Source: a virus | Taxonomy: Duplodnaviria; Caudoviricetes | Length of the DNA: 61,273 bases | IMG/VR virus record: IMGVR_UViG_3300032288_001098 | Span: 1-61,273 of that record | Direction: 5' to 3' (one strand) | Part shown: positions 1,438 through 48,903 of the stretch, one piece after another | How positions within the stretch are numbered: position 1 is the first letter of the stretch | Layout: the number at the start of each line of letters is the position of its first letter | Program-made: the position numbers and the translations under genes | Notes under the pieces: model-generated | Seen by the model: the letters and a program-made list of their open reading frames with translations, nothing else | Told to the model about the DNA's origin: nothing | The model's database searches: none

Positions 1438-1714
1438 GTATCTTTTGGAGGCCGTCAGGCTCTCTCCCTGTCAGCACTGCGGGATTCAGGACGGCACTGT
1501 GGTGGCCGCTCATTCAAACCAACTGCGCGATGGGAAGGGCAGGAGCATCAAGGCCCACGACTTCAGGATCGCCGCCCTGTGCTTTAAATGCCACTACGAG
1601 CTGGATCAAGGCAGCAAGCTCACAAAGGATGAGCGTTTAAACATGTGGGAAGACGCCCACCGGGCCACGGTAGGCTGGCTCTTCCTTAACGACCTCATTT
1701 CAGTGAAGCGATAG
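1424..1714 (+). CDS. Zinc-binding HNH-like protein (DUF1364/DUF968-like)
   Basis: CQHC...AAHSN...GKG..IKAHD...ALCFKCH. Confidence 0.7.
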   Translation: MYRDKYLLEAVRLSPCQHCGIQDGTVVAAHSNQLRDGKGRSIKAHDFRIAALCFKCHYELDQGSKLTKDERLNMWEDAHRATVGWLFLNDLISVKR

Positions 1715-7700: not shown

Positions 7701-10700
7701 GCCGTGCTTGTCAAGTAACGACTGAATCTGGACAAGATTGTTAGTGAGCGCATCTGCACGGCGAGAACTAACCGGAACAAGCGGCTTGCCCTGACGCAAG
7801 TCGGAATACAGCCGGATAGCATTCTTGATGTTTGCGGTTACATCTTCACCGTTTGAGGTGACAGCAACAAGCGCAGAGAACACAGACCGGGCGTGTTTGT
7901 TTTCTTTCAGCTCATTGAATCGATTGCCAAGACGTTTAACTGCGTTGGGGTAGTTGTTGGAATACCAGCCAAGGCCAGTGCCGGTTTTGGCGCTGGCGCG
8001 TAGCTGGTAGCCAACTTCGTCAGCAACAGCCTTGGCAAGGTCTTCGACATCTTGTGCGGTCGGGTTGGACTTGTCTATGGCACCAAAATGATCCGTGGTG
8101 TATTGGTTCAACGCTTTACCAACATCACGAACATTATTTGCGCCGGTTGCGCCCTTGACTTTGTCTGTCTTCAAGCCAAGGGCAATTTGTGCGAAACCCG
8201 CCGTCTGCTCCATAAGGTTGCGGGTAGAACGATTCACCCCAGCGCCTGCAAGGCTGTATTTTTGTTTGGCATCAATAACTTCTTCAGCCTTCTCTTCGGC
8301 CTCACGCCCCCTGCGGCTGGATTCCTCATTCATTTTGACCATGAGGTCGTTAGCTTTCTGCTCATCGCCGCCAACAAAATCCATCACCGCTTGATTTAAA
8401 CGGCGGAATGTCATGGTCTGATTGCGTTTTGCAGCCCCGGGAGAAATCCCTTGTGGCCGTCCAACTCTTCCAGACGCCTCGTCATCTGCCTTGATGACCT
8501 TCTCATGCAAGTCCCAAATCTTCTGGGGGATGCCTTTGGGCGCAAGGCTAAGTTTCTCTTCTGCTTCGGCAGGCTTACGACCTCTCAACTCGCCACGCTC
8601 AACCCTTTGGAAGATGTCATCCGCAGATTCAAACCCTGCGCCGCGCAGAGCTTGGCCGAAGTTCAGGAAGAAGTTCTTGAGCCGTTTAAACAGAGCAGCG
8701 ATCATGCCCGGTGGCGGCGTGGCTCCTCTGTCATAAGCGCCGAATGCGTCAGCAATTGCCTCCTCGTTGAGGGTTTCCCTGACGTAGTTCTGGAGTTGCT
8801 GGCCGGACAGGCCCTTGGCCTCGCCCTCTTGGGTGAACATCTCGACATACGCATCATGGCGAGACTTACCCTCGGAGAAGGGCACGTTCTTGAGTTCCTG
8901 AACCCACTGCTTTTCTGCTCTTTCGTTTAAAGCCTTCCACTGCTGCGGGGTGAAGAAGCCCAAGTCCTTGAGCGCATGAAGGGACTCATGCCGCATGGTC
9001 TGAAGCGGGTTGGCCTCGTCATACGCCACCCGGATCAGCTTGTTCAGATATGCGCCGCCCGCATTGTTTTCGATGCTCTCGACAACCTTCAGGCCGACAT
9101 CCTGCAAGCCAAACTGCTTGAGCTTGGGGACAAGCTGTTGCTCCAAAGCAACAATACGCTCATCCCTCTGCTTCTTCATCTCCGCCTGTTTAAAGGGTTC
9201 ATCGCCGATGATGCCCCGCACCGACGCCTCCGCCTCTCCTGCGGTTGCGAAGGTTCCAAGTGGCTCGTTGGTGGGCGACAGCACGTTGTACTGCTCCCTC
9301 ACCGTTTCCTTCTGGCCAATCGGGGCGAAGGTCAGGGGGGCTCCGAGTTGTTGGACTTGCTCCGCCAACTCTCTTGCTTTGGTTTCTGCGGCCAGTTCCT
9401 GATCGGGCAGGGCGGTCTTTAGCTTGGTGTACTCGGGGTCAGCGGTCTTGCCGGTGGCCTCAAGGTAGTCAATCCTGTCGCGGGTCTTCTGTATCCCGTC
9501 ATTGAGCTTTTCCATCTGCTCAACAAGGGTCTCCCGCTCGGACTCACGAATTTCCTTGAAAGACTCGATCTTTTGCAGGGCCTGTTGCTCGGACGCAACA
9601 GTTGTGAGCGGGGTCTCCTGACCCTCCACAAAGATGCCGTAGGACTCAGGCCCGACCTCCCGGCCCAACTCCTCGCGCATGACCTTGTAGCCTTGCGGCA
9701 ACTCGATGGGCTTTTCGGGCTCAGGGGGACGAGCGGCCATTTCGGCAAGCGCCCGGGCCTTCTCGGCCTCAAACTCAGCCTGTTGTTTCTTGATCGCCTC
9801 CTGACGCAGAGCCTCCACATCAGGGCCGCGAAGAGCGGCAACTGGAGCAGAACCGAGAAGACCAAGCAAGCCTTCCTGCGTGGCTTGACCGGCAACACCC
9901 TCAAAGGTGGGGACATCACGCCCCTCTCTCTGGAGGGCGAGGTTTGCAGCCAAGCGTTCCTGACCGCCTTGGAAGGCTTCTGTGGGCACATCGGTGGCCG
10001 CTGCTGTGGCTATCCTGCCTGCCACAGATTGGCTGGCCTTTGCCGCCGCCCCGGGGGTCAGAAGCCGTTCTGCACCGAACCTGCCAGCGACATAACCTGC
10101 GCCTGAACCCAGAAGAATCTGGTCAATGTTGTTGCCTGCGTAGCTTTGGGCGGCTTCAGCCTTTGCCCGGGCCTCCTCCTCGCCAACGCCGTCCTTGCGC
10201 TCTGCCTCATACACCGCATCGTAAATAGCGCCTTTGACAGCGCCAGCACCCTGCGCAGTACCAATGACGGCAGGAGCCGCTTTGGCTACGTTGGTTGCCG
10301 CCGCAGTTGCCCTTGCACCAAGTCCAAGAACGCCAGCGGCTGGCCCCAAGAACATGGTCGGGATATACGGAGCAAAGGAACCCAATGCCTGTGCGGCAGA
10401 CTGAAGCGGGGCCTCGGCAATGTTTTGAAGTACGGCCTTGGCTTCTTCAAGGGCACTGCCAGATGCTTCTGCACGCTTTAAACGCTCCTGCTGGCGGGCA
10501 AGCTCGGCTTGGCGGGCGACAGACATCCCGGCCTGAGAAGCCCGGACACGCTCTTCCAATGCCCGAGAAGCCACATTCCCAGCCCCAAAGACATCAGTCA
10601 GGGCTTGGGTACTGCCATATGCGCTCTGCGCAAAGGAGGCGGCAAGATCGCCGAGGTTGAAGCCAGCAGACTCAGGAGCCCTCTGGCGCATCGCCATCTG

Positions 10701-10802
10701 ACTGCCGACAAACCCAAAGATTTGCTCTTGGGTTGCACCCTCTGGAGCTTCAACCTTGTAAATGTTGCCGTCTGGAGCCTGTACCGTGTAGATCGGCATC
10801 AT
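1695..10802 (-). CDS. Giant polyvalent (DarB-like, probably injected) protein: zincin HExxH, HhH/glycosylase-like, ART-like x2, ParB-like and LPD38-like C-terminal domains
   Basis: 3035-aa ORF; RHESLHAL; GPKLGAFYANL..TMDLW; VFYHAT..AIFLAD..GFDAF..YAVYKPEQLKS; ITGHEGRHRM; C-terminal NFNRKG..PFLNARMQG..IPIPFEVG. Confidence 0.8.
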   Translation of the reverse strand: MMPIYTVQAPDGNIYKVEAPEGATQEQIFGFVGSQMAMRQRAPESAGFNLGDLAASFAQSAYGSTQALTDVFGAGNVASRALEERVRASQAGMSVARQAELARQQERLKRAEASGSALEEAKAVLQNIAEAPLQSAAQALGSFAPYIPTMFLGPAAGVLGLGARATAAATNVAKAAPAVIGTAQGAGAVKGAIYDAVYEAERKDGVGEEEARAKAEAAQSYAGNNIDQILLGSGAGYVAGRFGAERLLTPGAAAKASQSVAGRIATAAATDVPTEAFQGGQERLAANLALQREGRDVPTFEGVAGQATQEGLLGLLGSAPVAALRGPDVEALRQEAIKKQQAEFEAEKARALAEMAARPPEPEKPIELPQGYKVMREELGREVGPESYGIFVEGQETPLTTVASEQQALQKIESFKEIRESERETLVEQMEKLNDGIQKTRDRIDYLEATGKTADPEYTKLKTALPDQELAAETKARELAEQVQQLGAPLTFAPIGQKETVREQYNVLSPTNEPLGTFATAGEAEASVRGIIGDEPFKQAEMKKQRDERIVALEQQLVPKLKQFGLQDVGLKVVESIENNAGGAYLNKLIRVAYDEANPLQTMRHESLHALKDLGFFTPQQWKALNERAEKQWVQELKNVPFSEGKSRHDAYVEMFTQEGEAKGLSGQQLQNYVRETLNEEAIADAFGAYDRGATPPPGMIAALFKRLKNFFLNFGQALRGAGFESADDIFQRVERGELRGRKPAEAEEKLSLAPKGIPQKIWDLHEKVIKADDEASGRVGRPQGISPGAAKRNQTMTFRRLNQAVMDFVGGDEQKANDLMVKMNEESSRRGREAEEKAEEVIDAKQKYSLAGAGVNRSTRNLMEQTAGFAQIALGLKTDKVKGATGANNVRDVGKALNQYTTDHFGAIDKSNPTAQDVEDLAKAVADEVGYQLRASAKTGTGLGWYSNNYPNAVKRLGNRFNELKENKHARSVFSALVAVTSNGEDVTANIKNAIRLYSDLRQGKPLVPVSSRRADALTNNLVQIQSLLDKHGKGFEEELTKEITVSQMNAYLRSVGEEPSSDYLANTKIPAAAIYFGPKLGAFYANLSGSEGYLTMDLWWTRSINRMRGLLVPQATPNSINTFRELMEMPSATREEVIAATVPFKKKYEQHGYVTDLEFLAGAKEPNKAGYPKWLAKAKRKAGPAFEQLMLEHRLEKLGNTIYKNEYEMLKEDPFNSSDRKFMYDVARKAQKNLRSEGIDLSLADIQAALWYYEKRLYAKLTGREADDIGYEEAIIAQSTESDRREGPSVVFDEQPDRRDESRGKGAVPDESGRVDASKLSLKKGIVAEVAPNPDHISAELWREMTPQERIDATKAVASKIMLGVFSELGLRGYSYQFSSGKYEGELNPNIIVEAPEDATIQELDELARVLGYVLDQKAMVTFDENNKTSGSQAGFVQVVIPNGMKESDVNELRNHIARSVPQAGGDTLRNGSLFFGNFSAYDDRVDTLTDKQYHQAIVDAINEFDYVGDIEVYEPMRFHSDLVEASKREDYLEGTRYGERDTQDLQAERDTVRGQGRKRLEAIAESAIALRDRWIDARGAARQRGGERGNEIRVGDAQAEYGTPRANSVSAVGVHFSKQQRPIISTAFYGSGLRGMERDRLMEPKNSDIRSRAYFYVDKGRGIIPESGVGGVPHVIKLNNLYDVLKDPLGIVKRANGETAEERRNNWERGVKEAGFDGYLLNDPLQHNGYAVLVGKHDVKTSKSATRYSLKGVAFPSVKAVKEAVAKTEVPTTREFRLFNGANRWLDKDGKAKVFYHATAREFFEFTPAGQSQAIFLADTPEEAETFGSIAEDRLRREIYKALNKAEKLDFFQRVVDEEVKKGSISEREGTDFIKQANRKVPDYGDFGDIEAQVYAALLDLSPTRMSIMPLYARAETPFDFENSDHVNLVMDWVARNTQIPQDFPEKWLAGMKGRISQGLWQAIEDKRVQQAIRALGFDAFTVRENRASPKNYAVYKPEQLKSVTGNLGDYGLETKDIRYSLKNVRYSDNRFEKLWNESMYTQNDAENKTKGYLAFVDPMDFVRATASPETFERLLQEQEPLDPERMRNYDQVPFLSVSEKNGEWKITGHEGRHRMLALHGAGYNEVPIYIHLRAEDAKSIPVKMLTAQYPDSVSSVLMAAEVEPLSYANKDKAMEKFTRMSSKVKYSLPAIPKAMETRIGETTFRREPEGFFERMTEAISPKNFSYFRQRVLNQYNQLGVYDRKLVEQMGGKELLADQSAEAAALMSDLGAGVAASAMGFGDRNGGIPVYKNGVTTIDRSKKGLIAILQPLARYGDPKIYQYYQYWAMVKRGVRLNAEGKETGIDNTDVQYAKYLQDKFPEFVTVQKEFIEFNNGLVKYARDTGVISEQNAEAFMRYADYVPFYRQMDGETTVGPNIFQSIAGVKPPKKLKGGTAPLADFLETAVRNTQSMIQAGVKNAAAQRAVGVVTKVKAPGMGAERLDHDANGPDVFHVLENGKRVSYRTPDALLIDAISSLHLNEIPGLGIIAAPANALRNLVTKDPGFMMANLMRDSLSAWVTSGQKMTPIAGTVINFGKALAKKSKGYEALLDAGVIGGYEFSQNIERSGRQLEEDLSEKAGKKAPLVLRPFKSLWGALERGTEASDAATRALVYERVLNDTGNEAEALFRALEVMNFNRKGNSPLVRILTAGVPFLNARMQGLDLFYRASTGNMNMADKAAIQRKFWLRGSTMMAISAYYWMMVHDEDDYKSQEQETKDNNWIIPSLGIRIPIPFEVGVLFKTIPERIMAYSFGNDTGKDFTESMKRNFMSTFAFNPIPQVVKPVLETAFNFNPFTWRQIVGQGMQDVAAEYQVGPGTSKIAKAIGENLGLSPMKVDHIIKGYTGTMGMYAIDTIDYIMDQFGDSPKAAKRFEQMPVIKRFAVDPAARGTVTAYYEMKDSVDTTVRTMNLLERTMEPEKFAQYVQDNLGPLAVKDYIRDLEKTMKELREMRVVIQSSTMSAEEKRDGLLTINQAENNLTKNIQEVKKAIASLK

Positions 10803-38010: not shown

Positions 38011-38200
38011 CTGAATGCTCCATTTTTTGCACGAGGTCGTTGATGATGTTCTCTGCAAGGCTCAGACCCCGGATGACCCCGCAGATTTTCTTGTACTCGT
38101 CATACGTGTCAGCTCTGCTTGCGGCCACGTAGGCCACCTGCTCCTGACGCAGTTTGTCGATCTCCTTGACTACTAAAGCGAGAGCTTTGTACTCATTCAT
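38003..38200 (-). CDS. Hypothetical protein
   Basis: EYKKICGVIRGL; located between portal and GroES. Confidence 0.65.
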   Translation of the reverse strand: MNEYKALALVVKEIDKLRQEQVAYVAASRADTYDEYKKICGVIRGLSLAENIINDLVQKMEHSDD

Positions 38201-40668
38201 TTACTTCCTTTCCTTGCAGCCTTTTGGGCGTCGAGTTGCATTGCCACTTGCGCCTTGTGCTTGGCGATTTCCACGCCGAGCTTGGCTCCTTCTGCCTGCT
38301 GGGACTTGGCAAGTTTGTCCCGAGCGGCGGCGGCATTTGCCGCAACCTGCATGGCCGCGATTTCTTTTTGCGCGGCGATTCGTGCCATCTCGATTTCGAT
38401 CTGGTCTGACTTGGCAGCGGCCTCCATAGCCTGCTTCTGGGCCTTGAGCTCCAAGTCCTTTTGTTTGAGCTGGAGCTCCTGCATCTGCATTTGGACCACG
38501 GGGTCCTGCATCTGCTGCATTGCCGCCGCCTGTTGGGCTTGGGCTTGGTTGCCGCTGACAATCTGCTGAGTCGCCTGCGCGGCCATCATGGCAATCTGGT
38601 TGGCCATCTCTGGCGGCAGGTTCTTCTGCTGCTCTTCGGACGGCAGCGGGGCACCCATGAGTTGCTCAACTTGCAGGCGGAACTTGAATCCAACGTGTTC
38701 GTTGATATGAGCCATGACGGCCCCAACAATCTGCTGGGCCATCGGGTTTTGCTGCAACAGCTGCTGCATGGCCGGGTCCTGCATAAACATCATGTGGACC
38801 GCAATATGGGCGTCATGGTTTTGCTCCACAAACGCCTTATTCTTCTTTCCATTCAAGAAGTTCTGGTTCTCCTGCACCGGATCAACCGGGGTTGCATCAT
38901 CCTCAATCGGCACCAGCTTGGCAGCGTTCTTGATGCCCAGCACCTCAATCATCTGCCGGTGCAGCAGGGGCAGGTCATACAACTGCGGGGCAGATTGGGC
39001 AAGTTGGAGAACTGCCTGATACTGCACGATCTTCTGCGCCATTGTGGCGGCGTTCGGGTCGGACACGGGGATGACATCCACCATGTCGTAGTCCATCCTG
39101 CGTGCCCTGCGGCTACCCTCGTAAGGCTGGTACTCGTACTCCTCGGGGCAGAAGTCGGCAATGATGGCCTTGAGCAGTTTAAACTCCTGCTTCATGGCGA
39201 AATGCAGGCGCGACTGAACGGCTGTCATCACCTTCAGGGTGCGCTCAAGAATGGCCAGCGTTGTACCCACCGGGGCCTGACTGGACATGTCAGAGACCTT
39301 CATGTCGCCCGACGAAGCAAAGGCGCGGCCCTCCTGAACAATCTGGTTAAACAGGGCGTAGAGAACTTGGCTGGGCTCTTTGTACGGCAGCGGCAGGATG
39401 TTGTCGCGTATCGAACCGGACGGAACATCCACATCTCTGAACTCTCCCGGAGCAATCGGGGTGTCATCTCCCTTGATGCGCAGACCCCGGCTTTTTAAAC
39501 CACCGGGCAGGTTTGACAGGGTTCCGGCATCCACCAATTGGCGGATAAGCATGGTTGCGCTCTTGGCGTAGCCACCAATCAGGTGGATCAAGCCGTAACC
39601 ATAGAAGCCAAAGCCCGGGATGTACTGGTAATGCACGAAGTGCTGACGCTTCATGTGAAGTTTGTCACCCTCGTACCAGTTGCGGCGGATCGCCAGAATT
39701 TTGCTGGTCCCCTTCTCAATGGTGACCACATACGGCAGGGCAATGCCCGTTTCTTCTCCTGCCTTGTTTGTATGCTCGTATCCCTTGAGGTCAAGGTTTA
39801 CATGCATTTCAAGGATGCGGAAGCGATCATCCTGAATGGCGGTCATGCCGGTTTCTTCGGCCTTTTGCTTCTCGATGTCATCGAGTTCGTATGTAGGCTC
39901 CCCCAAGTCCACATCCATATAGAAGCCAGCTTCTTGGAGCTTGAGAATCTCGTTGGGGGTCTTGCGCATAACATGCGTCACACGCTCTGCGGTCTCCAGA
40001 TTAGAGGCTCCATAAGGAACCACAATGTCTTCTGCGGGGATGAATACCGCAACCTGCCTGCCTTTGCTGGGGTCGTAGTAGACCTTTTTAAACGCTGAAC
40101 CTGTGATTGGCAGAGCCCACAGGAGTTTTTCATGCTCCGCCCGGTACTCAGTCATAACCTCCGTCAATTGGAAGTTCATGTCCTCCCGAACCCGGGTGGC
40201 AGCTTCTTCGCGCATTTTGTCGATGGCCCCAACAATCTGGGTCTTGACCGGCCCCATCGCGGGGAAGGTTTCCATCATGGACTCCGACTGGAATCGGACA
40301 ACGGACTCGGTGAGCATGGGGTGAAAGACCCCGCAGGCTCCGTTCCACGGCTCTGTGCGCTCTTCATATTTGAGGCCCAGCAGCTTTAAACCATCAACGT
40401 AGGTACGAACCCAATCGCGGCGGTCGCCAATATCTTGAGTGAAATCATCAATCAGCTCGGAACCCAGTGAGTCCAAGTCGCTGGGATTCATGTACTCCGC
40501 CAAGTTGGCATCAAAATCCTCGGCGGTTTCCGGGGCTGGCATCAGATCAATCTCCATGCCGTCAATCCCAATACTCACTGCGTCGGGATTCTCGATCTCA
40601 ATTTCAACCGCCGGGGCGACATCCATAATCCCAACGGGTGCGCCGTACAGAGCTTTATCAATTGCCAT
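38197..40668 (-). CDS. Portal protein
   Basis: 823 aa; GSAFKKVYYD, GFYGYGLIHLIG, Q-rich barrel C-terminus; near TerL. Confidence 0.88.
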   Translation of the reverse strand: MAIDKALYGAPVGIMDVAPAVEIEIENPDAVSIGIDGMEIDLMPAPETAEDFDANLAEYMNPSDLDSLGSELIDDFTQDIGDRRDWVRTYVDGLKLLGLKYEERTEPWNGACGVFHPMLTESVVRFQSESMMETFPAMGPVKTQIVGAIDKMREEAATRVREDMNFQLTEVMTEYRAEHEKLLWALPITGSAFKKVYYDPSKGRQVAVFIPAEDIVVPYGASNLETAERVTHVMRKTPNEILKLQEAGFYMDVDLGEPTYELDDIEKQKAEETGMTAIQDDRFRILEMHVNLDLKGYEHTNKAGEETGIALPYVVTIEKGTSKILAIRRNWYEGDKLHMKRQHFVHYQYIPGFGFYGYGLIHLIGGYAKSATMLIRQLVDAGTLSNLPGGLKSRGLRIKGDDTPIAPGEFRDVDVPSGSIRDNILPLPYKEPSQVLYALFNQIVQEGRAFASSGDMKVSDMSSQAPVGTTLAILERTLKVMTAVQSRLHFAMKQEFKLLKAIIADFCPEEYEYQPYEGSRRARRMDYDMVDVIPVSDPNAATMAQKIVQYQAVLQLAQSAPQLYDLPLLHRQMIEVLGIKNAAKLVPIEDDATPVDPVQENQNFLNGKKNKAFVEQNHDAHIAVHMMFMQDPAMQQLLQQNPMAQQIVGAVMAHINEHVGFKFRLQVEQLMGAPLPSEEQQKNLPPEMANQIAMMAAQATQQIVSGNQAQAQQAAAMQQMQDPVVQMQMQELQLKQKDLELKAQKQAMEAAAKSDQIEIEMARIAAQKEIAAMQVAANAAAARDKLAKSQQAEGAKLGVEIAKHKAQVAMQLDAQKAARKGSK

Positions 40669-41105: not shown

Positions 41106-42620
41106 TCAAACTGTGTAAAACCGCTCTCTTGCGCGGCGACCTTTGAAATAAACCGGCTCATCCGGCTCATCGGTATCAATCGGGATGAATCCCCCCTGTC
41201 TGAAACGAAGCAGGGCCTGACTGGTCGAGTCAACAAGGTCATCATGGTCCCCGTTGGGGAAAGAGGCCAGTTCTTCCATCAGTTCATCAGCCCAGCGGGT
41301 CGCAGGACACCACACCACTCCAGAAGCAAACAGGTCAGAAATTGCGTTTACACGCGCAATCTTATCGCTTCCTTTGCTCGGTGTATATTCCGAAAGAGGG
41401 ATGCCCATCTGCCGCAACTCATAGATCAAAGGAGCGCCAGCGGCCTTCTTTTCCACAATCAGGGTGTCCGGGTTCCACTCCTTGAACATCTCAAACGCCT
41501 TTGATTTGAGTTCAGGGAACTCCAAACGGGCCTTGAAGCTGTCCAAAACGATGATGTTGGACTTGTAATTGCCCTTCTCATCAGGATGTTTAAACACCCC
41601 CCACGTTGTACAGGCGGAGTAGTCTGCGCGGTTGGATTTCTCAAAGGCGGTGTCCCAGCTTTGGATGATGTACTCACAAGAGGGGGGTGACTCATGGTCC
41701 CAAATGCGCCATTGGTCCCTCTTGATGATGGCCCCTTCCTCGGAGGTTGGGTTTTGCTGGTACTGGGCCTCCCACTTGGCCACTGGAAGTTCAGCTTTGA
41801 GGGCTTCCAGCTCCTCTTTCTTCCAAAATCCGGGCCAGAGGGGGTTGCCGGAGGGCAAAATGGCGGGAAATTCAATCACTTCCCACTCATCTGTGCCCCC
41901 TTTTTGACTGTTTTTGAGTATTTGGCCGGTCAGATCACGCTTTGCCCAGCGGGTCATCACAATGATGATCGCTCCCCCGGGCTGTAAACGCTGGCGCGGG
42001 CCGGATGTGTACCACTCATACACATTGTCATACACCGCAGGATTGCCCTGCTTGGCCTCTTGCTCCGAATGGGGGTCATCGATGATCAAAACATCGGCAC
42101 CCTTACCCGTAACGGCACCCCCAACACCGATAGCGAAGTAGTCGCCGCCCTTGTCGGTATTCCATCTGCCCGCCGCCTTTGAATCTGTGGACAACTTGGT
42201 CTCAAAAACCCGCCCGTAGGCTTCTGACTGCACCAGATTCCTCACCTTACGACCAAATCCAACAGCCAATTCTGCGGTGTGAGCGGTCTGAATGATCTTC
42301 TTTTCCGGGTACAAACCCAAAAACCAAGCCGGGAGGAGGTAGGAAGCAAACTCGGACTTGGTATGCCGGGGCGGCATATTGATGATCAACCGCTTCAACT
42401 CCCCACGGGCAACCCTCTCAAAGGCGTCAGCCATGATCTGGTGATGTTTACCCGAGATAAACCCCGGCCACATGTGAGAGACAAAGTAAATAAACGAACT
42501 TTTGCACCTCTCTACCCGGTCCATCTCCAAGAGCATCATGATCTTGGCCCGCTTGTCCTCATCCACCAGCGGGATCAGAGCCTTGTAGTTCTCTATCTCA
42601 TCACGGGTCAGTAACGTCAC
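41106..42620 (-). CDS. terL: Terminase large subunit
   Basis: NMPPRHTKS, LIIDDPH, MTRW, SWDTA, HDDLVDS; GTG start overlaps upstream stop. Confidence 0.95.
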   Translation of the reverse strand: MTLLTRDEIENYKALIPLVDEDKRAKIMMLLEMDRVERCKSSFIYFVSHMWPGFISGKHHQIMADAFERVARGELKRLIINMPPRHTKSEFASYLLPAWFLGLYPEKKIIQTAHTAELAVGFGRKVRNLVQSEAYGRVFETKLSTDSKAAGRWNTDKGGDYFAIGVGGAVTGKGADVLIIDDPHSEQEAKQGNPAVYDNVYEWYTSGPRQRLQPGGAIIIVMTRWAKRDLTGQILKNSQKGGTDEWEVIEFPAILPSGNPLWPGFWKKEELEALKAELPVAKWEAQYQQNPTSEEGAIIKRDQWRIWDHESPPSCEYIIQSWDTAFEKSNRADYSACTTWGVFKHPDEKGNYKSNIIVLDSFKARLEFPELKSKAFEMFKEWNPDTLIVEKKAAGAPLIYELRQMGIPLSEYTPSKGSDKIARVNAISDLFASGVVWCPATRWADELMEELASFPNGDHDDLVDSTSQALLRFRQGGFIPIDTDEPDEPVYFKGRRARERFYTV

Positions 42621-42853
42621 AAAGCAGCCACTTCCCTTACAGACCTGTCCACAACCTTGATCCCATTCCACCGAGTAGTTTTGACCGCCAAGTGGCCATC
42701 CTCCTCCAGCTTATGGACAATCCTGTGAATATTCGCCTTGGACTTCATCCCCAATCCCTTGGCAATCACCAAATACGACGGCGATACACCATGAATACGG
42801 ATGTACGCCTTGATGAAGTCATACACCAGCTTGTGCTTTTCTTGCATGCTCAT
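42617..42853 (-). CDS. LexA-type winged-HTH DNA-binding protein
   Basis: VYDFIK.YI..HGVSPSY..IAKGLGMKS..IHRIVHKLEE.G. Confidence 0.75.
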   Translation of the reverse strand: MSMQEKHKLVYDFIKAYIRIHGVSPSYLVIAKGLGMKSKANIHRIVHKLEEDGHLAVKTTRWNGIKVVDRSVREVAAL

Positions 42854-43299: not shown

Positions 43300-43962
43300 T
43301 CAGCCTGCCTTGATTGATTCGCGTCTGATAGGCTTGACGTTGTCCAGCAGGCGTAGGTGTCCAGACAGTTCCCGCTTCAGGTCTTCAGCCGACACCTTCT
43401 CACCCTTGGCATCATCCTCATGTTTAAACAACCCTGATGCCTTGCCGAGGAGTTCCAGTGCTTTGATTTTCGAGCCCTCTTGTTTGGCCTTTGCACTATG
43501 TTCAATCAACCCCCTGAGTACATACCGTCTTGTGGCAACCATGTCTTCCAGCAAGTGTTCCGTTGTCTGCTCGATGGCTTCCTTGACCACCGCTTGAACC
43601 TTCGGGTTCCGCGATAGCGACCATGCCGCCGCCTTAATTGATCTTTCATCTCCCTTGGCATCTGGGTACGCTTCTTTGTACGCTTGCAGTTGGGTTTTCC
43701 CCTCTATCAGACCCTGTGCGTACTTGAGTTGTTTTGCCGTTATTGGTCTCTCCCTCTGGCTCCCTACTGGTTGTCCGTCTGTTCTCCTCTTTGGTGCTTC
43801 TGCGTGGGCGGCTAACCGTTCCGCTTCGCTCAGTTCCGGGCCGCTGTCGGGGCCATCATCGACCGGCTCCATCAGTTCCCGCTCCGCTTCTTCCAGCGCC
43901 GCCATGTACTGTTCTTTGCTGATCTTCCCGGGCCTTGACCCATTGCCTGCCTGCTTGTCCAT
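43300..43962 (-). CDS. terS: Terminase small subunit
   Basis: TAKQ..Y..G..AYKEAY..A..L..NPKV..ALELLGK. Confidence 0.8.
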   Translation of the reverse strand: MDKQAGNGSRPGKISKEQYMAALEEAERELMEPVDDGPDSGPELSEAERLAAHAEAPKRRTDGQPVGSQRERPITAKQLKYAQGLIEGKTQLQAYKEAYPDAKGDERSIKAAAWSLSRNPKVQAVVKEAIEQTTEHLLEDMVATRRYVLRGLIEHSAKAKQEGSKIKALELLGKASGLFKHEDDAKGEKVSAEDLKRELSGHLRLLDNVKPIRRESIKAG

Positions 43963-44110
43963 GTGATTTCCTCCAGTACTGATGCTCCATACAGCATCGT
44001 TCGCCGTGCAGTCTATCTGAGCGGTTTAAACCCGTCAACCATACCTACCCCTTACCCTCTCCCCGATCTCGCCCCCTACGCAGGTCTGCAATGAATAAGT
44101 ACTACATAAC

Positions 44111-44204
44111 TTATCCACACAATTCACCGCCGCCTGTGGACAAGTCCCCATATCCACACTTGCCTGTGATCTGCCGTGGATAACTTAGTAAAACTTTTTT
44201 ATTG
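44111..44204. promoter_or_regulatory. Cluster of four DnaA-box-like motifs plus AT-rich tract (candidate origin)
   Basis: TTATCCACA 44111, TGTGGACAA 44135, ATATCCACA 44150, CGTGGATAA 44175, then an AT-rich run. Confidence 0.6.
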
Positions 44205-44389
44205 CAGACCATCCTCCCTGCCGTTTAAATATCCCCCATGCACCCTACCCCTACCCTGACCCCTTCAGCGCCTTGTAGACCCCTTTTCCCAGAACATGAC
44301 CCCCTCTAATAAGAGCGCCGAATCCACCCGGAGTGCTACGCACCCAGAACCCCCCGATCCAATAACCCTACGGTTTAGTCGGGAATGTA

Positions 44390-44419
44390 TTGACCCTGTT
44401 TACACGCTAGTGCTATGAT
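44390..44419 (+). promoter_or_regulatory. Early sigma70 promoter
   Basis: TTGACC-18 nt-TATGAT with TG extension. Confidence 0.65.
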
Positions 44420-44565
44420 GCGGCCATGCACTAGTGATAGTGCTTATGTGAACGGCCCACGATACGGTCGGTCTGAGGCGAAACCCGGAGGAAGTCCGGG
44501 AGCAAGTCAGACAGGGTTCAGCCCTGTACCAGTCCACCGTGACGGTAGATAAAACATCTCCCAAT

Positions 44566-44615
44566 AGATGCCAACGTGATGCCCTTTCCGAGGGCATTGC
44601 AGTGCCATCTGCACT
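44566..44615 (+). repeat. Intergenic hairpin element copy A
   Basis: AGATG..GTGATGCCCT-loop-AGGGCATTGC AGTGC CATCT GCACT. Confidence 0.8.
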
Positions 44616-44631
44616 TAACCCGGAGAAAACC

Positions 44632-44814
44632 ATGTACAACGTCCTTTTGATCAACGCCAGTGGCTACATCGTTGACCGCAACCACTTTGAAACAGTCACC
44701 GAGGCCCTAGCCCTTGCCGATGAATGGTCTACCGACTATCCCGGCCATGCAATTGACATCAAGTTTGTCCTGCCTGCCCGTGCGCCGACATGGACTGAAT
44801 TGACCCTCGCGTGA
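44632..44814 (+). CDS. Early hypothetical protein
   Basis: CCGGAG RBS and ATG. Confidence 0.65.
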   Translation: MYNVLLINASGYIVDRNHFETVTEALALADEWSTDYPGHAIDIKFVLPARAPTWTELTLA

Positions 44815-44864
44815 TTGCAGTCTGATGCCCTGCTTGTCTGGGCATTGGAGTGCCATCTTGCACT
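44812..44864 (+). repeat. Intergenic hairpin element copy B
   Basis: TGATTGCAG TCTGATGCCC-loop-GGGCATTGGA GTGCCATCTTGCACT. Confidence 0.75.
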
Positions 44865-44880
44865 GACCCGGAGAAACAAC

Positions 44881-45036
44881 ATGGAAACCCTGCTCAATAA
44901 ATACCGCGCCAACCCCACCGCCATCCGTCATGCCGCCGTGCTGACGTATCACCGCAAACACCCATTCGCTGAGTGCTTGCTTGGTGATGATGACCTTGCC
45001 CTGTTGCGCCGCCTGTGTGCATTCAAGCATGACTGA
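44881..45036 (+). CDS. Early hypothetical protein
   Basis: CCGGAG RBS; stop codon lies inside the hammerhead core. Confidence 0.65.
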   Translation: METLLNKYRANPTAIRHAAVLTYHRKHPFAECLLGDDDLALLRRLCAFKHD

Positions 45037-45078
45037 TGAGGCTTAAATAGCCGAAACCCCCGCGAGGGGGTCTCATGC
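45027..45078 (+). ncRNA. Type I hammerhead ribozyme (predicted cleavage 3' of C45072)
   Basis: GCAUGA-CUGAUGA-GGCU/UAAAU/AGCC-GAA-ACCCCC/GCGA/GGGGGU-C-UCAUGC: complete core and three stems. Confidence 0.93.
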
Positions 45079-45096
45079 AACCACCGGAGAGAAACC

Positions 45097-45384
45097 ATGA
45101 CCATCGAATTGACAACCCTCGCCGATGTACTGAAAACATGGGCATTGCCCGAATTGAAGGATGCCCAGAAAGCATTCAACAAACACCCCAATGGGGTGAA
45201 TTGGAACCGCTGTTTGAGGGCAATGCTGACCTATCAGCAACTGGAATTTGCCCTGCGGTCTTCCACCGTGGACAGGGAAAAACTGATGTTTGATCTTGAG
45301 TCAAACTCCCTCGGGCATTGGCAAGATGCTGTTTGCCGAGCAACCATGCGCATGACCTGCGCCCATGCCCTGCGGAACATTTAA
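45097..45384 (+). CDS. Early hypothetical protein (paralog of 45728-46033)
   Basis: RBS; shared K.F.K.P..W..YQQ..W.D..C..ALR pattern. Confidence 0.7.
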   Translation: MTIELTTLADVLKTWALPELKDAQKAFNKHPNGVNWNRCLRAMLTYQQLEFALRSSTVDREKLMFDLESNSLGHWQDAVCRATMRMTCAHALRNI

Positions 45385-45406
45385 ACCAACTGAGAGGAAA
45401 ACCACC

Positions 45407-45661
45407 ATGAAAATCACCGTTTACACAGACCCCGGTCACGGTTGGGGTGCAGTCAAACGTCAACTGCTTGCCGATCTGGGGATCGCCGACAAGGTCTCCA
45501 CGTATTCATACCAGCGGGGCCAGACGGTCTACCTTGAGGAGGACTGCGACCTGTCCCTGCTGATCGGGGCACTGCGTGACCGGGGCATAACCCCCGTGTT
45601 TGCCGAGCGGCACACAGACCGCCGCAGTCCGATCCGATCCTATGACACCTATCACGCCTGA
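45407..45661 (+). CDS. Conserved early phage protein
   Basis: TDPGHGW..S.YSY..YLEEDCD motif. Confidence 0.75.
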   Translation: MKITVYTDPGHGWGAVKRQLLADLGIADKVSTYSYQRGQTVYLEEDCDLSLLIGALRDRGITPVFAERHTDRRSPIRSYDTYHA

Positions 45662-45711
45662 TTCCACCGTGATGCACCCTGCCCCGGGTGCATTGCAGTG
45701 CAATCCGCACT
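45659..45711 (+). repeat. Intergenic hairpin element copy C
   Basis: TGATTCCACC GTGATGCACCC-loop-GGGTGCATTGC AGTGC AATCC GCACT. Confidence 0.85.
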
Positions 45712-45727
45712 TAACCGGAGACCTTCC

Positions 45728-46033
45728 ATGCAAACCACTGACCTCGACTCTGCCGCTGTCATTGCAACCCTCAAGGCTGAAGCCCGAAAGGCCAGCAAGA
45801 ACTTCATCAAGACCCCCCACGCAAATCGGTGGTTCGATATGACCGGAACCGCCTTTGTGTATCAGCAAGCCTACCTCTTCTTCAACAGTTTTACCCGTAG
45901 TCCCCGCGACAAGTTCGCCCTGCTTGCCCTGTTGGCGACCGAGCCGATTGACAACTGGGGTGATGTAATTTGCAACTTCGTGCTTGGCGTGTCTCTCGCC
46001 GAGGCCCTGCGTGAGTTTGCAACCTTCCCCTGA
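45728..46033 (+). CDS. Early hypothetical protein (paralog of 45097-45384)
   Basis: CCGGAG RBS; pattern shared with 45097-45384. Confidence 0.7.
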   Translation: MQTTDLDSAAVIATLKAEARKASKNFIKTPHANRWFDMTGTAFVYQQAYLFFNSFTRSPRDKFALLALLATEPIDNWGDVICNFVLGVSLAEALREFATFP

Positions 46034-46080
46034 TTCCACCGTGATGCCCATTCTGTGGGCATTGCAGTGCAATCCGCACT
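46031..46080 (+). repeat. Intergenic hairpin element copy D
   Basis: TGATTCCACC GTGATGCCCA-TTCTG-TGGGCATTGC AGTGC AATCC GCACT. Confidence 0.85.
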
Positions 46081-46096
46081 TCACTGGAGAAGACAA

Positions 46097-46453
46097 ATGA
46101 ACTACAAGACACAAGCACAAGCCGCCCTCTCAGGCATCAAGCAACTTGGCATTCTGGGCGATGCCATCCGGGCCAAGGAAACTGGCGACATGGGCGGTTT
46201 GGCCTACATCGTTGGCATGGCTCTCAACACCGGTGACTCCGTCAAGTGGGGCCTGCTGTTCGCCGTTGGGGATGAACTCGATGCCATCAAGTTGCAGGCA
46301 GAGATCGATGCCATCGATGCCATGCGTGAGCGAATCGCCTACCTCGAAAGAAAAAGCGAGGCAATGTGGCTTGAAGATCAAGACAACGATGCGTGGGAGC
46401 GAGAGCAAGCCCATGTCCGGTACGCCGAGGCTGGCGGTCGCAAGCACAACTGA
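46097..46453 (+). CDS. Early hypothetical protein
   Basis: GGAG RBS; stop codon inside the second hammerhead core. Confidence 0.7.
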   Translation: MNYKTQAQAALSGIKQLGILGDAIRAKETGDMGGLAYIVGMALNTGDSVKWGLLFAVGDELDAIKLQAEIDAIDAMRERIAYLERKSEAMWLEDQDNDAWEREQAHVRYAEAGGRKHN

Positions 46454-46493
46454 TGAGACCTGAATGGTCGAAACCCCTTCGGGGGTCTTGTGC
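46444..46493 (+). ncRNA. Type I hammerhead ribozyme (predicted cleavage 3' of C46487)
   Basis: GCACAA-CUGAUGA-GACC/UGAAU/GGUC-GAA-ACCCC/UUCG/GGGGU-C-UUGUGC. Confidence 0.93.
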
Positions 46494-46512
46494 AACTAAC
46501 CGGAGACCAACC

Positions 46513-46674
46513 ATGCCAACGAAAACCGAGATTTATGAATACCTGTGCGCCCTGCGCGATTCGGGCGAGGTCAACATGTTCTTAGCCTCGCCCTACCTTG
46601 AATATGAATTCGGCATGACCCGTGCCGAGGCCAAGCAAGCCTTGCTTGATTGGATAAGATCATTTAAACGATGA
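46513..46674 (+). CDS. Small conserved phage protein
   Basis: YL..LRDSG.VNMF.A.PYL..F motif; RBS. Confidence 0.7.
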   Translation: MPTKTEIYEYLCALRDSGEVNMFLASPYLEYEFGMTRAEAKQALLDWIRSFKR

Positions 46675-46830
46675 TGACTTGGCCCTTCCCACCCCCGGGT
46701 GGGCCTGTCCCGTGGACACCCGCGCAGGAGAGGGCCTACCGGCTCAAGCACAAACCCGCGCCACCTGACGGGCCTGATGCCCCCTTCTGATGACCGTACC
46801 TTTCCCGTTGTTTAAATGCAACATGGGTAC

Positions 46831-46857
46831 TTGCACTAGCACCATCGGTGCTACAAT
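46831..46857 (+). promoter_or_regulatory. Extended -10 promoter overlapped by palindrome TAGCAC-N5-GTGCTA
   Basis: TG-C-TACAAT; TTGCAC only 15 nt upstream, so spacing is suboptimal. Confidence 0.5.
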
Positions 46858-46882
46858 CACAATCACCAACCGGAGAAACAAA

Positions 46883-47464
46883 ATGTCTATGTCCTACAGC
46901 ACCCGTGAAGAATGGCTGACCGCCGCCGTTGAGGAACTTCGCCCCGTTTTCGGGGCAGTCAACAAACCCATCCCCGCCAAAATCCGGGTCGCCTGTGGCT
47001 TCCCGTTGGATGCCAAGCGTAGCAAGGCCATCGGCCAATGTTGGGCCGACACCGCCAGCGGGGACAAGACCATCGAGATTCTGATCTCGCCGGTGCTGGA
47101 CAAACCCTCCGAGGTTTTCGAGGTGCTGGTGCATGAGTTGTGCCATGCCACGGCAGGTGCGTTTAACCACGGCGTGAATTTTCAAAAGGTCGCCGCCATG
47201 ATGGGTCTGGTTGCCTGCGGGGGTGGAAAGCAATCATGGAAGTCCACCAAGGGCAATGCCGACTTCCTCCAGACCTATGGAGCGATTATCGATTCGCTCC
47301 AAGACTACCCGCATGCCGCCCTGACGTACCGGGACAAAAAGACGCAGGGAACCCGCCTGCTGAAGGCTATGTGCCCGTCCTGCGGGTACACCATTCGATT
47401 GACCCAGAAATGGGCCGACCAAGGCCTGCCTACCTGCCCCTGCGGCGACCAGTTGTCACTTTAA
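46883..47464 (+). CDS. SprT-like zinc metalloprotease
   Basis: LVHELCH..HG..F plus C-terminal CPSC/CPC ribbon. Confidence 0.85.
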   Translation: MSMSYSTREEWLTAAVEELRPVFGAVNKPIPAKIRVACGFPLDAKRSKAIGQCWADTASGDKTIEILISPVLDKPSEVFEVLVHELCHATAGAFNHGVNFQKVAAMMGLVACGGGKQSWKSTKGNADFLQTYGAIIDSLQDYPHAALTYRDKKTQGTRLLKAMCPSCGYTIRLTQKWADQGLPTCPCGDQLSL

Positions 47465-47478
47465 ACCGGAGAATCACC

Positions 47479-48903
47479 ATGATCATCAAAGAAGTCGAAA
47501 TCGCCCGTCTGCCCCTGAGCAAGGTCTATGGGGCCTATCAGCAATACCATCACAAGCCTTCATCGTGGAAGAACAAGGCAGATGCAGTCGGCTGGCTTGC
47601 TCTTCAGGTCGAGGCCGGGGCATTGTCGATGGACAGCATCCGGAGCGCCCCGGATGCAATGCCCTCTGCCGCCCCTGCCGGGGTCGACCCCGCGCTGGTT
47701 GCCGCTCTTGAAAAGAAGATCGCCGACCAGAAGGCTATCTCCCTTCAGGCCCTGCAACGGGCAGACCATGTTGCCGACCGGCTGATCAATGAGGTCAACA
47801 CCCTGACCGACACCCTCGTTGAGACCGAGCGCCGCCTGCATAATTCGATTACATCCAGCAAACCCGACCTGTCGAACGTGCAGTATGAGGTCGCCCGTGC
47901 GGTGCGTGATGCGTTCGCGCCCTTCCAAAAGGCAGTGCAGGATGCCGGGGCCGAGGTCGCGGTGGCGCAGGCATCCTCAGTTGTTCCGGTCGGGCGCAAG
48001 CCTGTGTCCGAGGTGTTTGGTGTTGCCGTGCATGACATGCGCGGGGCCGAGTTGACGGTCGAGGTCTGGGATCACCCGGAGGCCCCCGCCGTTGACCCGG
48101 ATTTCATCTGGACAGAGTCGATTCTGCGCTACCTGACACTAGCAGACCGCACCGGCGACAACCTGTGGTTTGGCGGGGAAAAGGGTACAGGAAAGTCCGA
48201 GACCGCCAGACAGTTTGCCGCGCGTACAGGTCGCGCGTTTAAACGCATCAACTTCCACAAGCACACCTCTGCCGAGGAATATGTGGGTGCGGTGGGTCTG
48301 GTTGACGGGCAAACCGTGTTTCAGCCCAAGGATTTTTTGCAGGCCTACACCTCGCCCTCCACCGTGATCCTGCTCGATGAGGTGACCAACGCAGACCCGG
48401 GGGAACTGGCCCCGCTCAATGGCTTTCTTGAACCCAACGCCGCTGTTTCATTCGGGGGCCAGACGCACCGCCGTGCGCCCGGGGTGCTGGTCTTCGCCGC
48501 CGACAATACCTTCGGTTCCGGTGATGATTCAGGTCGCCATGTTGGGACGCGAGTCCAAAATTCTGCTCTGATTGACCGGTTCGCCCACGTTGTACCGTTC
48601 ACGTTTCTCCCCGAGGCTCAGGAGATCGATGCCATCGTGCGCCGCACGGGTTGTGCCCGGGAACTTGCAGAGCATGTCATGGCATGCATCACGGTCGCCC
48701 GTCAGAAAGTCACCAGTGGGGACATTGTGGACGCACCGTCCATCCGCTCTGCAATGGCCTTCGTCCGCGCCGTGAGCGTCCTGCCGGTTGACCAAGCATG
48801 GCGCACCGCTGTTGTCGCCCGTCAGCCGAGTGAATCTCATGCTGAGTTGAACCTGATCTTCACCGCCTGCATCAACGCAGACACCATCAAAAAATATTTG
48901 TGA
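47479..48903 (+). CDS. MoxR/CbbQ/CobS-like AAA+ ATPase
   Basis: GEKGTGKS, LLDEV, AADNT.G.G, ALIDRF, SIR. Confidence 0.9.
   Translation: MIIKEVEIARLPLSKVYGAYQQYHHKPSSWKNKADAVGWLALQVEAGALSMDSIRSAPDAMPSAAPAGVDPALVAALEKKIADQKAISLQALQRADHVADRLINEVNTLTDTLVETERRLHNSITSSKPDLSNVQYEVARAVRDAFAPFQKAVQDAGAEVAVAQASSVVPVGRKPVSEVFGVAVHDMRGAELTVEVWDHPEAPAVDPDFIWTESILRYLTLADRTGDNLWFGGEKGTGKSETARQFAARTGRAFKRINFHKHTSAEEYVGAVGLVDGQTVFQPKDFLQAYTSPSTVILLDEVTNADPGELAPLNGFLEPNAAVSFGGQTHRRAPGVLVFAADNTFGSGDDSGRHVGTRVQNSALIDRFAHVVPFTFLPEAQEIDAIVRRTGCARELAEHVMACITVARQKVTSGDIVDAPSIRSAMAFVRAVSVLPVDQAWRTAVVARQPSESHAELNLIFTACINADTIKKYL

Follow-up and report, generated by a model that had tools for sequence, protein, structure and literature searches.

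What does an RNA do that phages place at the same gene junctions as ribozymes? The question is raised by a tailed-phage genome in IMG/VR (record IMGVR_UViG_3300032288_001098, a linear, nearly complete (98%) virus record of 61,273 nucleotides (nt), referred to here as the window), in which four copies of one structured RNA element, the motif, lie between small early genes and hammerhead ribozymes lie at two further junctions. We find that the motif is a real, widespread and covariation-supported phage RNA family outside Rfam 15, that it has two alternative folds, and that it exchanges with hammerheads in front of homologous genes. The original prediction, made from the letters of this sequence, had taken it most simply for an RNase III substrate whose 3' product refolds into a protective 5' hairpin, and had considered self-cleavage worth testing. 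By analogy with known systems, we put at about one half the probability that the motif is a processing signal for a host enzyme of the RNase III type, with a 3' product that refolds into a 5' hairpin.

A repeated RNA motif with two alternative folds

The search pattern GCATTGSAGTGCN{4,8}GCAC matched the window four times, compared with no match in 100 dinucleotide shuffles. A covariance model (R1), run with filters off over all 61,273 nt, found the same four copies, on the + strand and at the place that had been predicted, with scores of 53.3-74.8 bits (Table 1). The next-best match, at 14.9 bits, was the reverse strand of copy C, and the best other matches in the window were likewise reverse strands of the motif copies themselves. 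All matches lie on the gene strand, both in the window (53-75 bits on the + strand, at most 15 bits on the - strand) and in loci collected through a protein family described below (33 of 33 R1 matches). None of the seven sequencing runs found for the stretch is on record as RNA; all are Logan contigs, six of them with small shares, and the contigs compared with the window are probably DNA. Where contigs of relatives fit the window, they do so mainly at both hammerheads and at three of the motif copies (A, C and D), with patchy cover elsewhere.

An exact-pattern scan of IMG/VR returned at least 121 stretches, and the family-wide figures given here rest on these pattern-selected loci. R1, the kind of search that had been suggested as a check, recovered the motif at E ≤ 0.01 in 54 of the 121 loci, 34 of which carried two to five copies within ~4 kb (both counts among the matches listed). 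Since many R1 matches lack the original pattern, the family extends beyond what that pattern can retrieve. The resulting set comprised 87 distinct copies including those of the window, or 97 when the protein-anchored loci were added.

In the first fold, the motif is a long irregular hairpin of ~21 positions, consisting of a lower stem of six, a mismatch, three pairs, a second mismatch and a core of 9-11 base pairs (bp). The lower stem pairs a 5' flank, X, with a segment X' that is also the loop of a second hairpin, hairpin 2. The internal loop, 1x1 or 2x2, is bounded by a near-invariant CA..C / AGUG; across the family it varies from 2x2 to fully paired, and its flanks are kept as C-G in 64 of 75 scored rows and as A-U in 77 of 77. 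Immediately 5' of the core, A is faced by C or U, and at the next position G is faced by A, C or G.

This pairing was evaluated in a MAFFT alignment of 43 distinct copies that was fitted to no structure. Here, 90.4% of the cells of fold 1 were paired, against 75.5 +/- 0.9% after column shuffling (0 of 500 shuffles reached the observed value) and 33-40% in slid registers, and the four central lower-stem pairs each showed three to five pair types. Given this excess over the shuffles and the several pair types in the lower stem, the X/X' pairing is real and fold 1 is strongly supported by covariation. A larger alignment of 79 distinct matches (A3), which was fitted to the model and thus leans towards it, showed changes on both sides at 6 of 6 lower-stem pairs and 9 of 13 other pairs, and at 9 of the 10 pairs of the upper, or core, helix. 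Within the window, the covariation that had been described between the 5' and 3' arms is found in copy A (AGAUG/CAUCU) and in copies C and D (GAUU/AAUC), whereas copy B has just GAU/AUC together with outer GCG/UGC pairs.

The core stem GUGAUGC/GCAUUGC contains the expected tandem of U.G and G.U pairs, which is kept in 66 and 64 of 77 scored rows, with Watson-Crick pairs in its place elsewhere. Its closing pair, G-C in three copies of the window (A, C and D), is flipped to C-G in copy B, in agreement with the reported compensatory change, and divides into 44 G-C and 33 C-G family-wide. The invariance of this stem, in contrast, had been overstated, since diverged copies of other phages carry substitute helices (GGUAUGC/GCAUAUC, GGUCAGCC/GGUUGACC and CUGUAGCC/GGCUACGG). 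What is constrained is the length of the upper stem: the uninterrupted core helix measures 11 bp in 44 of 87 copies and 9 bp in 25, with varying sequences and with apical loops (3-7 nt) as variable as had been claimed.

In the second fold, the core is retained and is followed by hairpin 2, formed by AGUGC/GCACN in about 65 of the 87 distinct copies. The two folds are mutually exclusive, because X' and GUG serve in both, and each is the structure of minimum free energy (MFE) for some copies of the window, fold 1 for copies A, B and C and fold 2 for copy D. Anchoring of hairpin 2 was done by script, and the few rows that were mis-anchored were judged by eye. Compensatory variants, also identified by eye, were AGUGG/CCACU in two copies, AGUGGU/GCCAC in four and AGUAGG/CCUACU in two, and a weak copy in phage vB_SnaP-R1 (see below) has a hairpin 2 of CGGGC/GCCCG whose loop, AGUGUC, is complementary to its 5' flank GACACU. 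In fold 1 the closing C of hairpin 2 is mismatched; that it nevertheless covaries with its partner in hairpin 2 is hard to explain unless hairpin 2 forms. Hairpin 2 is thus supported by conservation and a few compensatory changes. The version of fold 2 in which this loop would pseudoknot with the 5' end did not hold up: X' takes 5 of 5 loop bases in copy A and 4 of 5 in copies C and D, with 0-2 nt to spare family-wide, and judging from pseudoknot geometry an H-type pseudoknot, in which 0-2 nt would have to cross a 4-6-bp helix, is sterically unlikely.

Exchange with hammerhead ribozymes at gene junctions

The motif fills the intergenic space. Each copy in the window sits between an upstream stop codon and the next Shine-Dalgarno site, and the element lies within ~10 nt of that site; the start codon follows the first base of hairpin 2 at a median of 32 nt (range 28-60; 83 of 87 copies scored). 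In 66 of the 87 copies, an upstream frame with 40 or more open codons terminates close by, with TGA in 51 of those, and the stop of 48 of the 66 lies 31-44 nt ahead of hairpin 2, within the 5' arm; the remaining 21 copies are mostly leader copies. For copies B, C and D of the window, the stops of the preceding open reading frames (ORFs) overlap X. Seven slots lie ahead of the seven small early ORFs (the leader and six junctions), four holding the motif and two a hammerhead, and the single empty slot is junction 45384/45407, which has neither.

Both hammerheads of the window have the full core (CUGAUGAG, CGAAAC and GUC) and three stems, as detected with a regular expression combined with a stem check. 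Further hammerheads of the same kind were seen in loci L054, L060, L068, L076, L077, L109, L163 and L168. As in the window, their stem I is open, stems II and III are short, and the stop codon that ends the upstream gene falls within the ribozyme. All of them score below the Rfam gathering thresholds, so standard annotation would miss them. Their slot geometry is identical to that of the motif, with the stop in the 5' part and the Shine-Dalgarno site and ATG directly after.

The sharing of slots that had been noted in the window extends to homologous genes of other phages. When the 99 ORFs downstream of motif copies or hammerheads were clustered into families, three protein families were found to mix hammerhead-preceded and motif-preceded members. 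In the first, the window ORF 45097-45384 follows a hammerhead and eleven homologues follow the motif, including the paralogue 45728-46033; in the second, the hammerhead is found in L054 and L068 and the motif in L112; in the third, the hammerhead is in L076 and the motif in L060. We also collected 16 loci through the first family (using a 5-member alignment); this sample overlaps the pattern-selected one by five contigs. Directly upstream of the gene, 13 of the 16 had the motif, two had a hammerhead, and one had promoter-like sequence without either element. Cutting is all that a hammerhead can do, so a substitute found in its place most likely brings about a cut too, and by this analogy the exchange points to RNA cleavage as the most likely function of the motif.

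The motif and the hammerhead are nevertheless different RNAs, with at most an analogous function: the motif has no CUGANGA, no GAAA, no three-way junction and no Rfam hammerhead match. Rfam 15 gave no match to the motif at gathering thresholds over the window, at E ≤ 10 on 43500-48500 (5 kb) or on 44415-44640 (226 nt), or at E ≤ 0.1 in 17 related loci (64,884 nt in total). In agreement with the earlier judgement by eye, covariance models of the known self-cleaving classes (hammerhead, twister, twister-sister, pistol, hatchet, HDV-like, hairpin, VS and glmS) did not match it, and no description of the motif was found in full-text literature searches. RAGATH motifs, which Weinberg et al. in 2017 reportedly defined as RNAs associated with genes that are themselves associated with twister and hammerhead ribozymes, resemble it in being conserved structured RNAs that adjoin hammerheads in phage-like DNA; the motif differs in that it matches no Rfam 15 RAGATH family (E ≤ 10 in the window, E ≤ 0.1 in the 17 loci).

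A new class of self-cleaving ribozyme, in which the irregular hairpin, possibly with hairpin 2, would cut itself near the CA..C / AGUG internal loop, could account for the occupancy of hammerhead slots down to homologous genes, for the strong conservation of the internal-loop flanks and the tandem G.U pairs, and for the lack of matches to known families. Twister-sister, pistol and hatchet were reportedly found in just this way, by searching near ribozymes (Weinberg et al. in 2015), and the presence of the motif in two unrelated phage types would fit a function that needs no phage-encoded partner. However, the motif shows no multi-helix junction, no conserved loop and, with so few spare loop nucleotides, no feasible pseudoknot; its internal loop can be fully paired, and the G.U tandem gives way to Watson-Crick pairs in diverged copies. 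All conserved bases lie in helices of fold 1 or fold 2, so that pairing in one or both folds explains every one of them, unlike in known small ribozymes, and a conserved loop or junction of the ribozyme type was not found. Many motifs located near ribozymes have failed to cleave when tested. We therefore consider such a ribozyme improbable, and give equally little credence to its most compact form, a very small ribozyme that would lock its product through hairpin 2 and be used interchangeably with hammerheads on early polycistronic mRNAs.

The mixed families also bear on a reading at the DNA level, in which the motif would be a module boundary, a site of homologous recombination that shuffles small early genes, with the RNA structure being incidental. 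The same protein families do stand behind different element subtypes, the same elements stand before different genes, and the motif is common to otherwise unrelated phages; promoter-stem-loop (PeSL) modules of T4-type phages were reportedly proposed as recombination sites by Arbiol et al. in 2010. Yet compensatory changes keep the helices intact and the conserved G.U pairs are strand-specific, neither of which is expected of a recombination site. This makes the reading highly improbable, and recombination may instead be a by-product of motif conservation.

Predicted cleavage by a host enzyme of the RNase III type

For comparison, we folded five early intercistronic regions of phage T7, which we take to be the RNase III sites R0.3, R0.5, R1, R1.1 and R1.3 of Dunn and Studier (1983); the T7 record annotates only promoters and coding sequences. 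The five regions have sequence in common, and in their folds an internal loop separates a lower stem from an upper stem of 9-13 bp; the lower stem at the 0.4/0.5 junction includes the stop UGA in its 5' arm. The long hairpin of the motif has the same architecture, ~two helical turns in total, and to this extent the evidence fits the interpretation as an RNase III substrate. The two kinds of element are further alike in being present in several copies within one phage with sequence common among the copies, in lying between early genes of a host-transcribed polycistronic mRNA, and in that the upstream stop can fall in the 5' arm and a ribosome-binding site follows soon after. They differ in that there is no sequence similarity between them, and in that no equivalent was seen in the five T7 folds of the alternative hairpin that the 3' arm of the motif makes with GCACU, whose loop is the 3' strand of the lower stem. 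The motif also alternates with hammerheads, unlike the T7 sites, and its cleavage by RNase III is a prediction. Among phage signals of the RNase III type, the built-in product hairpin and the interchangeability with hammerheads would be its unusual features.

Starting from the two folds, their covariation, the position of the motif and its exchange with hammerheads, we infer cleavage, an enzyme, a cut site and a stabilising role in the following scheme. The motif would be an intercistronic processing signal at which the long, host-transcribed early message is cut into single-gene pieces. The nascent RNA would fold into fold 1, with X usually carrying the stop codon of the upstream gene, and a double-strand-specific endonuclease of the host, most likely RNase III, would cut near the internal loop. 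With the 5' arm gone, the 3' product could refold, AGUGC pairing with the downstream GCACU and X' forming the loop, into a hairpin at or beside the new 5' end, ~15 nt ahead of the start codon and leaving the Shine-Dalgarno site free. This hairpin would hide the 5'-monophosphate left by RNase III and so shield the cistron that follows from 5'-end-dependent decay, an outcome that hammerheads in equivalent slots would achieve through a 5'-OH.

The cut may fall directly before the A of AGUGC. This point is ~10-12 positions away from the apical loop, next to the closing pair that is always G-C or C-G, and a cut here would leave hairpin 2 flush at the new 5' end. Passages of one study of RNase III state that the enzyme leaves a 5'-phosphate, a 3'-OH and 2-nt 3' overhangs when both strands are cut, and that in vivo the two positions between the cuts are paired, usually including a G-C pair (PMC6212723). 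The placement proposed here would agree with the rule as given in those passages.

A host enzyme is favoured on four grounds, namely the T7-like architecture, the occurrence of the motif in the host-transcribed early region of a T7-like phage, the lack of an RNase III domain among the window ORFs scanned and the lack of ribozyme-like conservation. The motif has the irregular two-turn stem and the intercistronic or leader position in a polycistronic transcript that characterise signals for host RNase III. A Pfam scan of 59 window ORFs found no RNase III domain, no double-stranded RNA-binding domain and no RNA polymerase domain, so the cutting enzyme would be that of the host.

The predicted product hairpin has a parallel in the E. 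coli ompA 5' untranslated region, where a 5'-terminal stem-loop is said to stabilise the mRNA (Emory, Bouvet and Belasco, in 1992). Hairpin 2 would similarly stand at or near a processed 5' end, upstream of a free ribosome-binding site. In contrast to the ompA type, it would form only after a cut upstream of it, by refolding, and its 5'-terminal position follows from the scheme above.

Several observations weigh against RNase III processing with a refolding product. The internal loop of the motif is much smaller than that of most T7 sites. A cut around the invariant CA/UG pairs would be equally compatible with the rule given in those passages of PMC6212723, and would destroy the 5' arm of hairpin 2. 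Formal covariation in hairpin 2 is thin, with one of five pairs changing on both sides in A3, where 10-15 of the 79 rows are gapped depending on the pair, and hairpin 2 is absent in about 11 of 87 copies, so it is not essential to the core function of the element. The nearest deposited phages by large terminase (DSL-LC04, 023Pt_psg01 and Pelagibacter phage HTVC027P; 55-59% identity) gave no R1 match at E ≤ 0.01. Finally, the energies predicted for the two folds in uncut RNA are nearly equal family-wide, with a median difference of 0.2 kcal/mol, differences within 3 kcal/mol in 57 of 79 copies and fold 1 favoured in 40 of 79 (predicted values without a shuffled control). Fold 1 is thus not clearly dominant, and a switch without cleavage fits these energies equally well.

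Such a switch would be a bistable regulatory or stabilising element whose state is set by sequestration of X, held either by a ribosome terminating at the stop codon in X or by an upstream CAUC segment of the leader, and whose output could be translation of the next gene, binding of a protein (as a translational operator) or protection from nucleases. In line with this, a stop codon lies within X in most non-leader copies, the element comes so close to the Shine-Dalgarno site, and the upstream CAUC(U) of leader copies can pair with an X of (A/G)GAUG. However, since neither fold pairs up the Shine-Dalgarno site, no mechanism of a simple on/off kind can be seen. Cleavage is also favoured by the exchange with hammerheads, whose only activity is cutting. 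The evidence for the CAUC(U) pairing consists of conservation, and the leader-type loci L025, L027 and L043 have no CAUC(U). We regard a bistable element as a tentative possibility, on the unlikely side.

Other readings were rejected. An intrinsic terminator was dismissed, since a + strand scan of 44200-47000 found no terminator-like site and a Shine-Dalgarno site and start codon come after the copies. Readings as a boxB/nut-like element, a K-turn (C/D box) or, again, a terminator were set aside in view of the variable loops, the lack of sheared G.A pairs, the four copies in one operon and the lack of a U-run.

The main value of the motif lies in what it may say about hammerheads, as the same junctions before homologous genes hold one or the other. 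Passages of a study of such ribozymes describe the role of those encoded in bacterial and phage genomes as largely unresolved, with processing of polycistronic transcripts just suggested (PMC6765202). Should the motif turn out to be cut by RNase III, its exchange with hammerheads would supply direct comparative evidence for a role of phage hammerheads in processing mRNAs between cistrons, and for the ability of phages to trade a protein-dependent cutter for a protein-free one. The refolding design, from precursor hairpin to 5'-terminal product hairpin, would be a compact module that both insulates and stabilises cistrons, of interest for synthetic operon design.

Distribution and genomic surroundings

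The motif was also found in an isolated phage, Sphaerotilus phage vB_SnaP-R1 (MN844877.1), which is T7-like and belongs to the Autographiviridae (Krylovirinae). Two copies lie in its early region, at 1809-1880 with 23 bits and, more weakly, at 1232-1301 with 11 bits; each stands ahead of early genes and, as judged by eye, downstream of repeated sigma-70-like promoter sequences. Two unrelated phage types, a polyvalent-protein podovirus and a phiKMV-like phage, thus carry the motif, and the pair of vB_SnaP-R1 and Sphaerotilus natans DSM 6575, being isolated, opens the question to bench work. As a side observation, the annotated gp3 of vB_SnaP-R1 (1842-2123; locus L161) starts inside the RNA element, at 1842; its true start is likelier to be ATG 1899, which is preceded by GGAGA.

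Searches of other sequence collections returned little. The 2.3-kb region gave no blastn match to deposited phages at E 1e-5, and the leader with copy A gave just chance-level matches to them (E 0.7). A stricter 21-base pattern was found at 32 places in 185,579 representative bacterial and archaeal genomes, two of which reached E ≤ 0.001 with R1 (25.3 and 23.1 bits). All 32 were rejected by eye, as they had no 5' arm and no following Shine-Dalgarno site and ATG, and several represented one conserved coding region; with this pattern, the representative genomes yielded no convincing motif copy, prophage copy or clue to the host.

In the window, the rightward operon of small ORFs begins downstream of a sigma-70-like promoter (Table 1). 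It is the sole promoter-like site in a scan of 44200-47000 and is by itself non-significant, shuffles averaging 1.5 sites, and this promoter element is kept in related loci. None of the seven small early ORFs has a PHROG match. Two of them, 45097-45384 and 45728-46033, are paralogues with 28% mutual identity in an alignment, and their family is likewise without a PHROG match.

Table 1. Coordinates of the motif copies, hammerheads and neighbouring features in the window. Energies are in kcal/mol.
Feature	Position	Strand	Score	Next ATG	Energy	Details
Motif copy A (leader copy)	44566-44615	+	R1 74.8 bits	44632	MFE fold 1, -26.7, z -4.65; hairpin 2 forced -25.7	X AGAUG 44566-44570; core hairpin 44576-44600; hairpin 2 44601-44615 (AGUGC, loop CAUCU = X', GCACU)
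Motif copy B	44809-44864	+	R1 53.3 bits	44881	MFE fold 1, -28.1, z -2.35; hairpin 2 forced -23.0	Core UCUGAUGCCC/GGGCAUUGGA, closing pair C-G; hairpin 2 44849-44864; upstream stop TGA 44812-44814 in 5' arm
Motif copy C	45660-45711	+	R1 66.5 bits	45728	MFE fold 1, -28.6, z -4.81; hairpin 2 forced -26.4	X GAUU 45660-45663, overlapping stop TGA 45659-45661; core 45669-45696; hairpin 2 45697-45711
Motif copy D	46032-46080	+	R1 72.6 bits	46097	MFE fold 2 (core + hairpin 2), -26.4, z -3.26; hairpin 2 forced -26.4	X GAUU 46032-46035, overlapping stop TGA 46031-46033; core 46041-46065; hairpin 2 46066-46080
Hammerhead 1	45027-45078	+	RAGATH-1 hammerhead 26.1 bits, E 0.33; gathering 56.3	45097		Stem I open; predicted cut after GUC at 45072; stop TGA 45034-45036 inside element
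Hammerhead 2	46444-46493	+	Hammerhead_HH9 28.3 bits, E 5e-4; gathering 52	46513		Cut predicted after GUC at 46487; UGA of the CUGAUGA core doubles as the upstream stop TGA 46451-46453
Sigma-70-like promoter	44390-44419	+	10/12 positions			TTGACC, 18 nt, TATGAT; TG ahead of -10
Small early ORF 1	44632-44814	+				
Small early ORF 2	44881-45036	+				
Small early ORF 3	45097-45384	+				
Small early ORF 4	45407-45661	+				
Small early ORF 5	45728-46033	+				
Small early ORF 6	46097-46453	+				
Small early ORF 7	46513-46674	+				
Portal	38197-40668	-				
Large terminase	41106-42671	-				

Between the promoter and copy A lies a conserved structured leader RNA of ~110 nt (44440-44560), which could be aligned in 12 leader-type sequences (the window and 11 loci). 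RNAalifold gave four helices with 29 pairs, eight of which keep their pairing through changes on both sides, and one hairpin is wholly swapped for different sequences in relatives. No Rfam family matched it at E ≤ 10 (in the 226-nt search), and it has no match in deposited phages. Given its nearness to the promoter, candidates for its role are an antitermination RNA like HK022 put, a riboswitch and a further ribozyme. A leader hairpin, GGAGGAAGUCCGGG, resembles the CR-I element of RNase P; this candidate was dismissed, since the hairpin covaries to other sequences in relatives. At 44556-44570, and in leader-type loci such as L006, L034 and L047, the CAUC(U) upstream of the leader copies is a third possible partner of X and has the same sequence as X'.

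The - strand of the window carries structural genes, including the portal, SU10-type adaptors, a lysozyme and the large terminase. An ORF of 3035 amino acids at 1695-10802, also on the - strand, encodes a polyvalent protein with LPD38 and ADP-ribosyltransferase (ART) domains (Pfam). The idea of N4-like hairpin promoters was dropped, as this ORF is such a polyvalent protein and not a virion RNA polymerase; it is probably an injected multi-domain protein.

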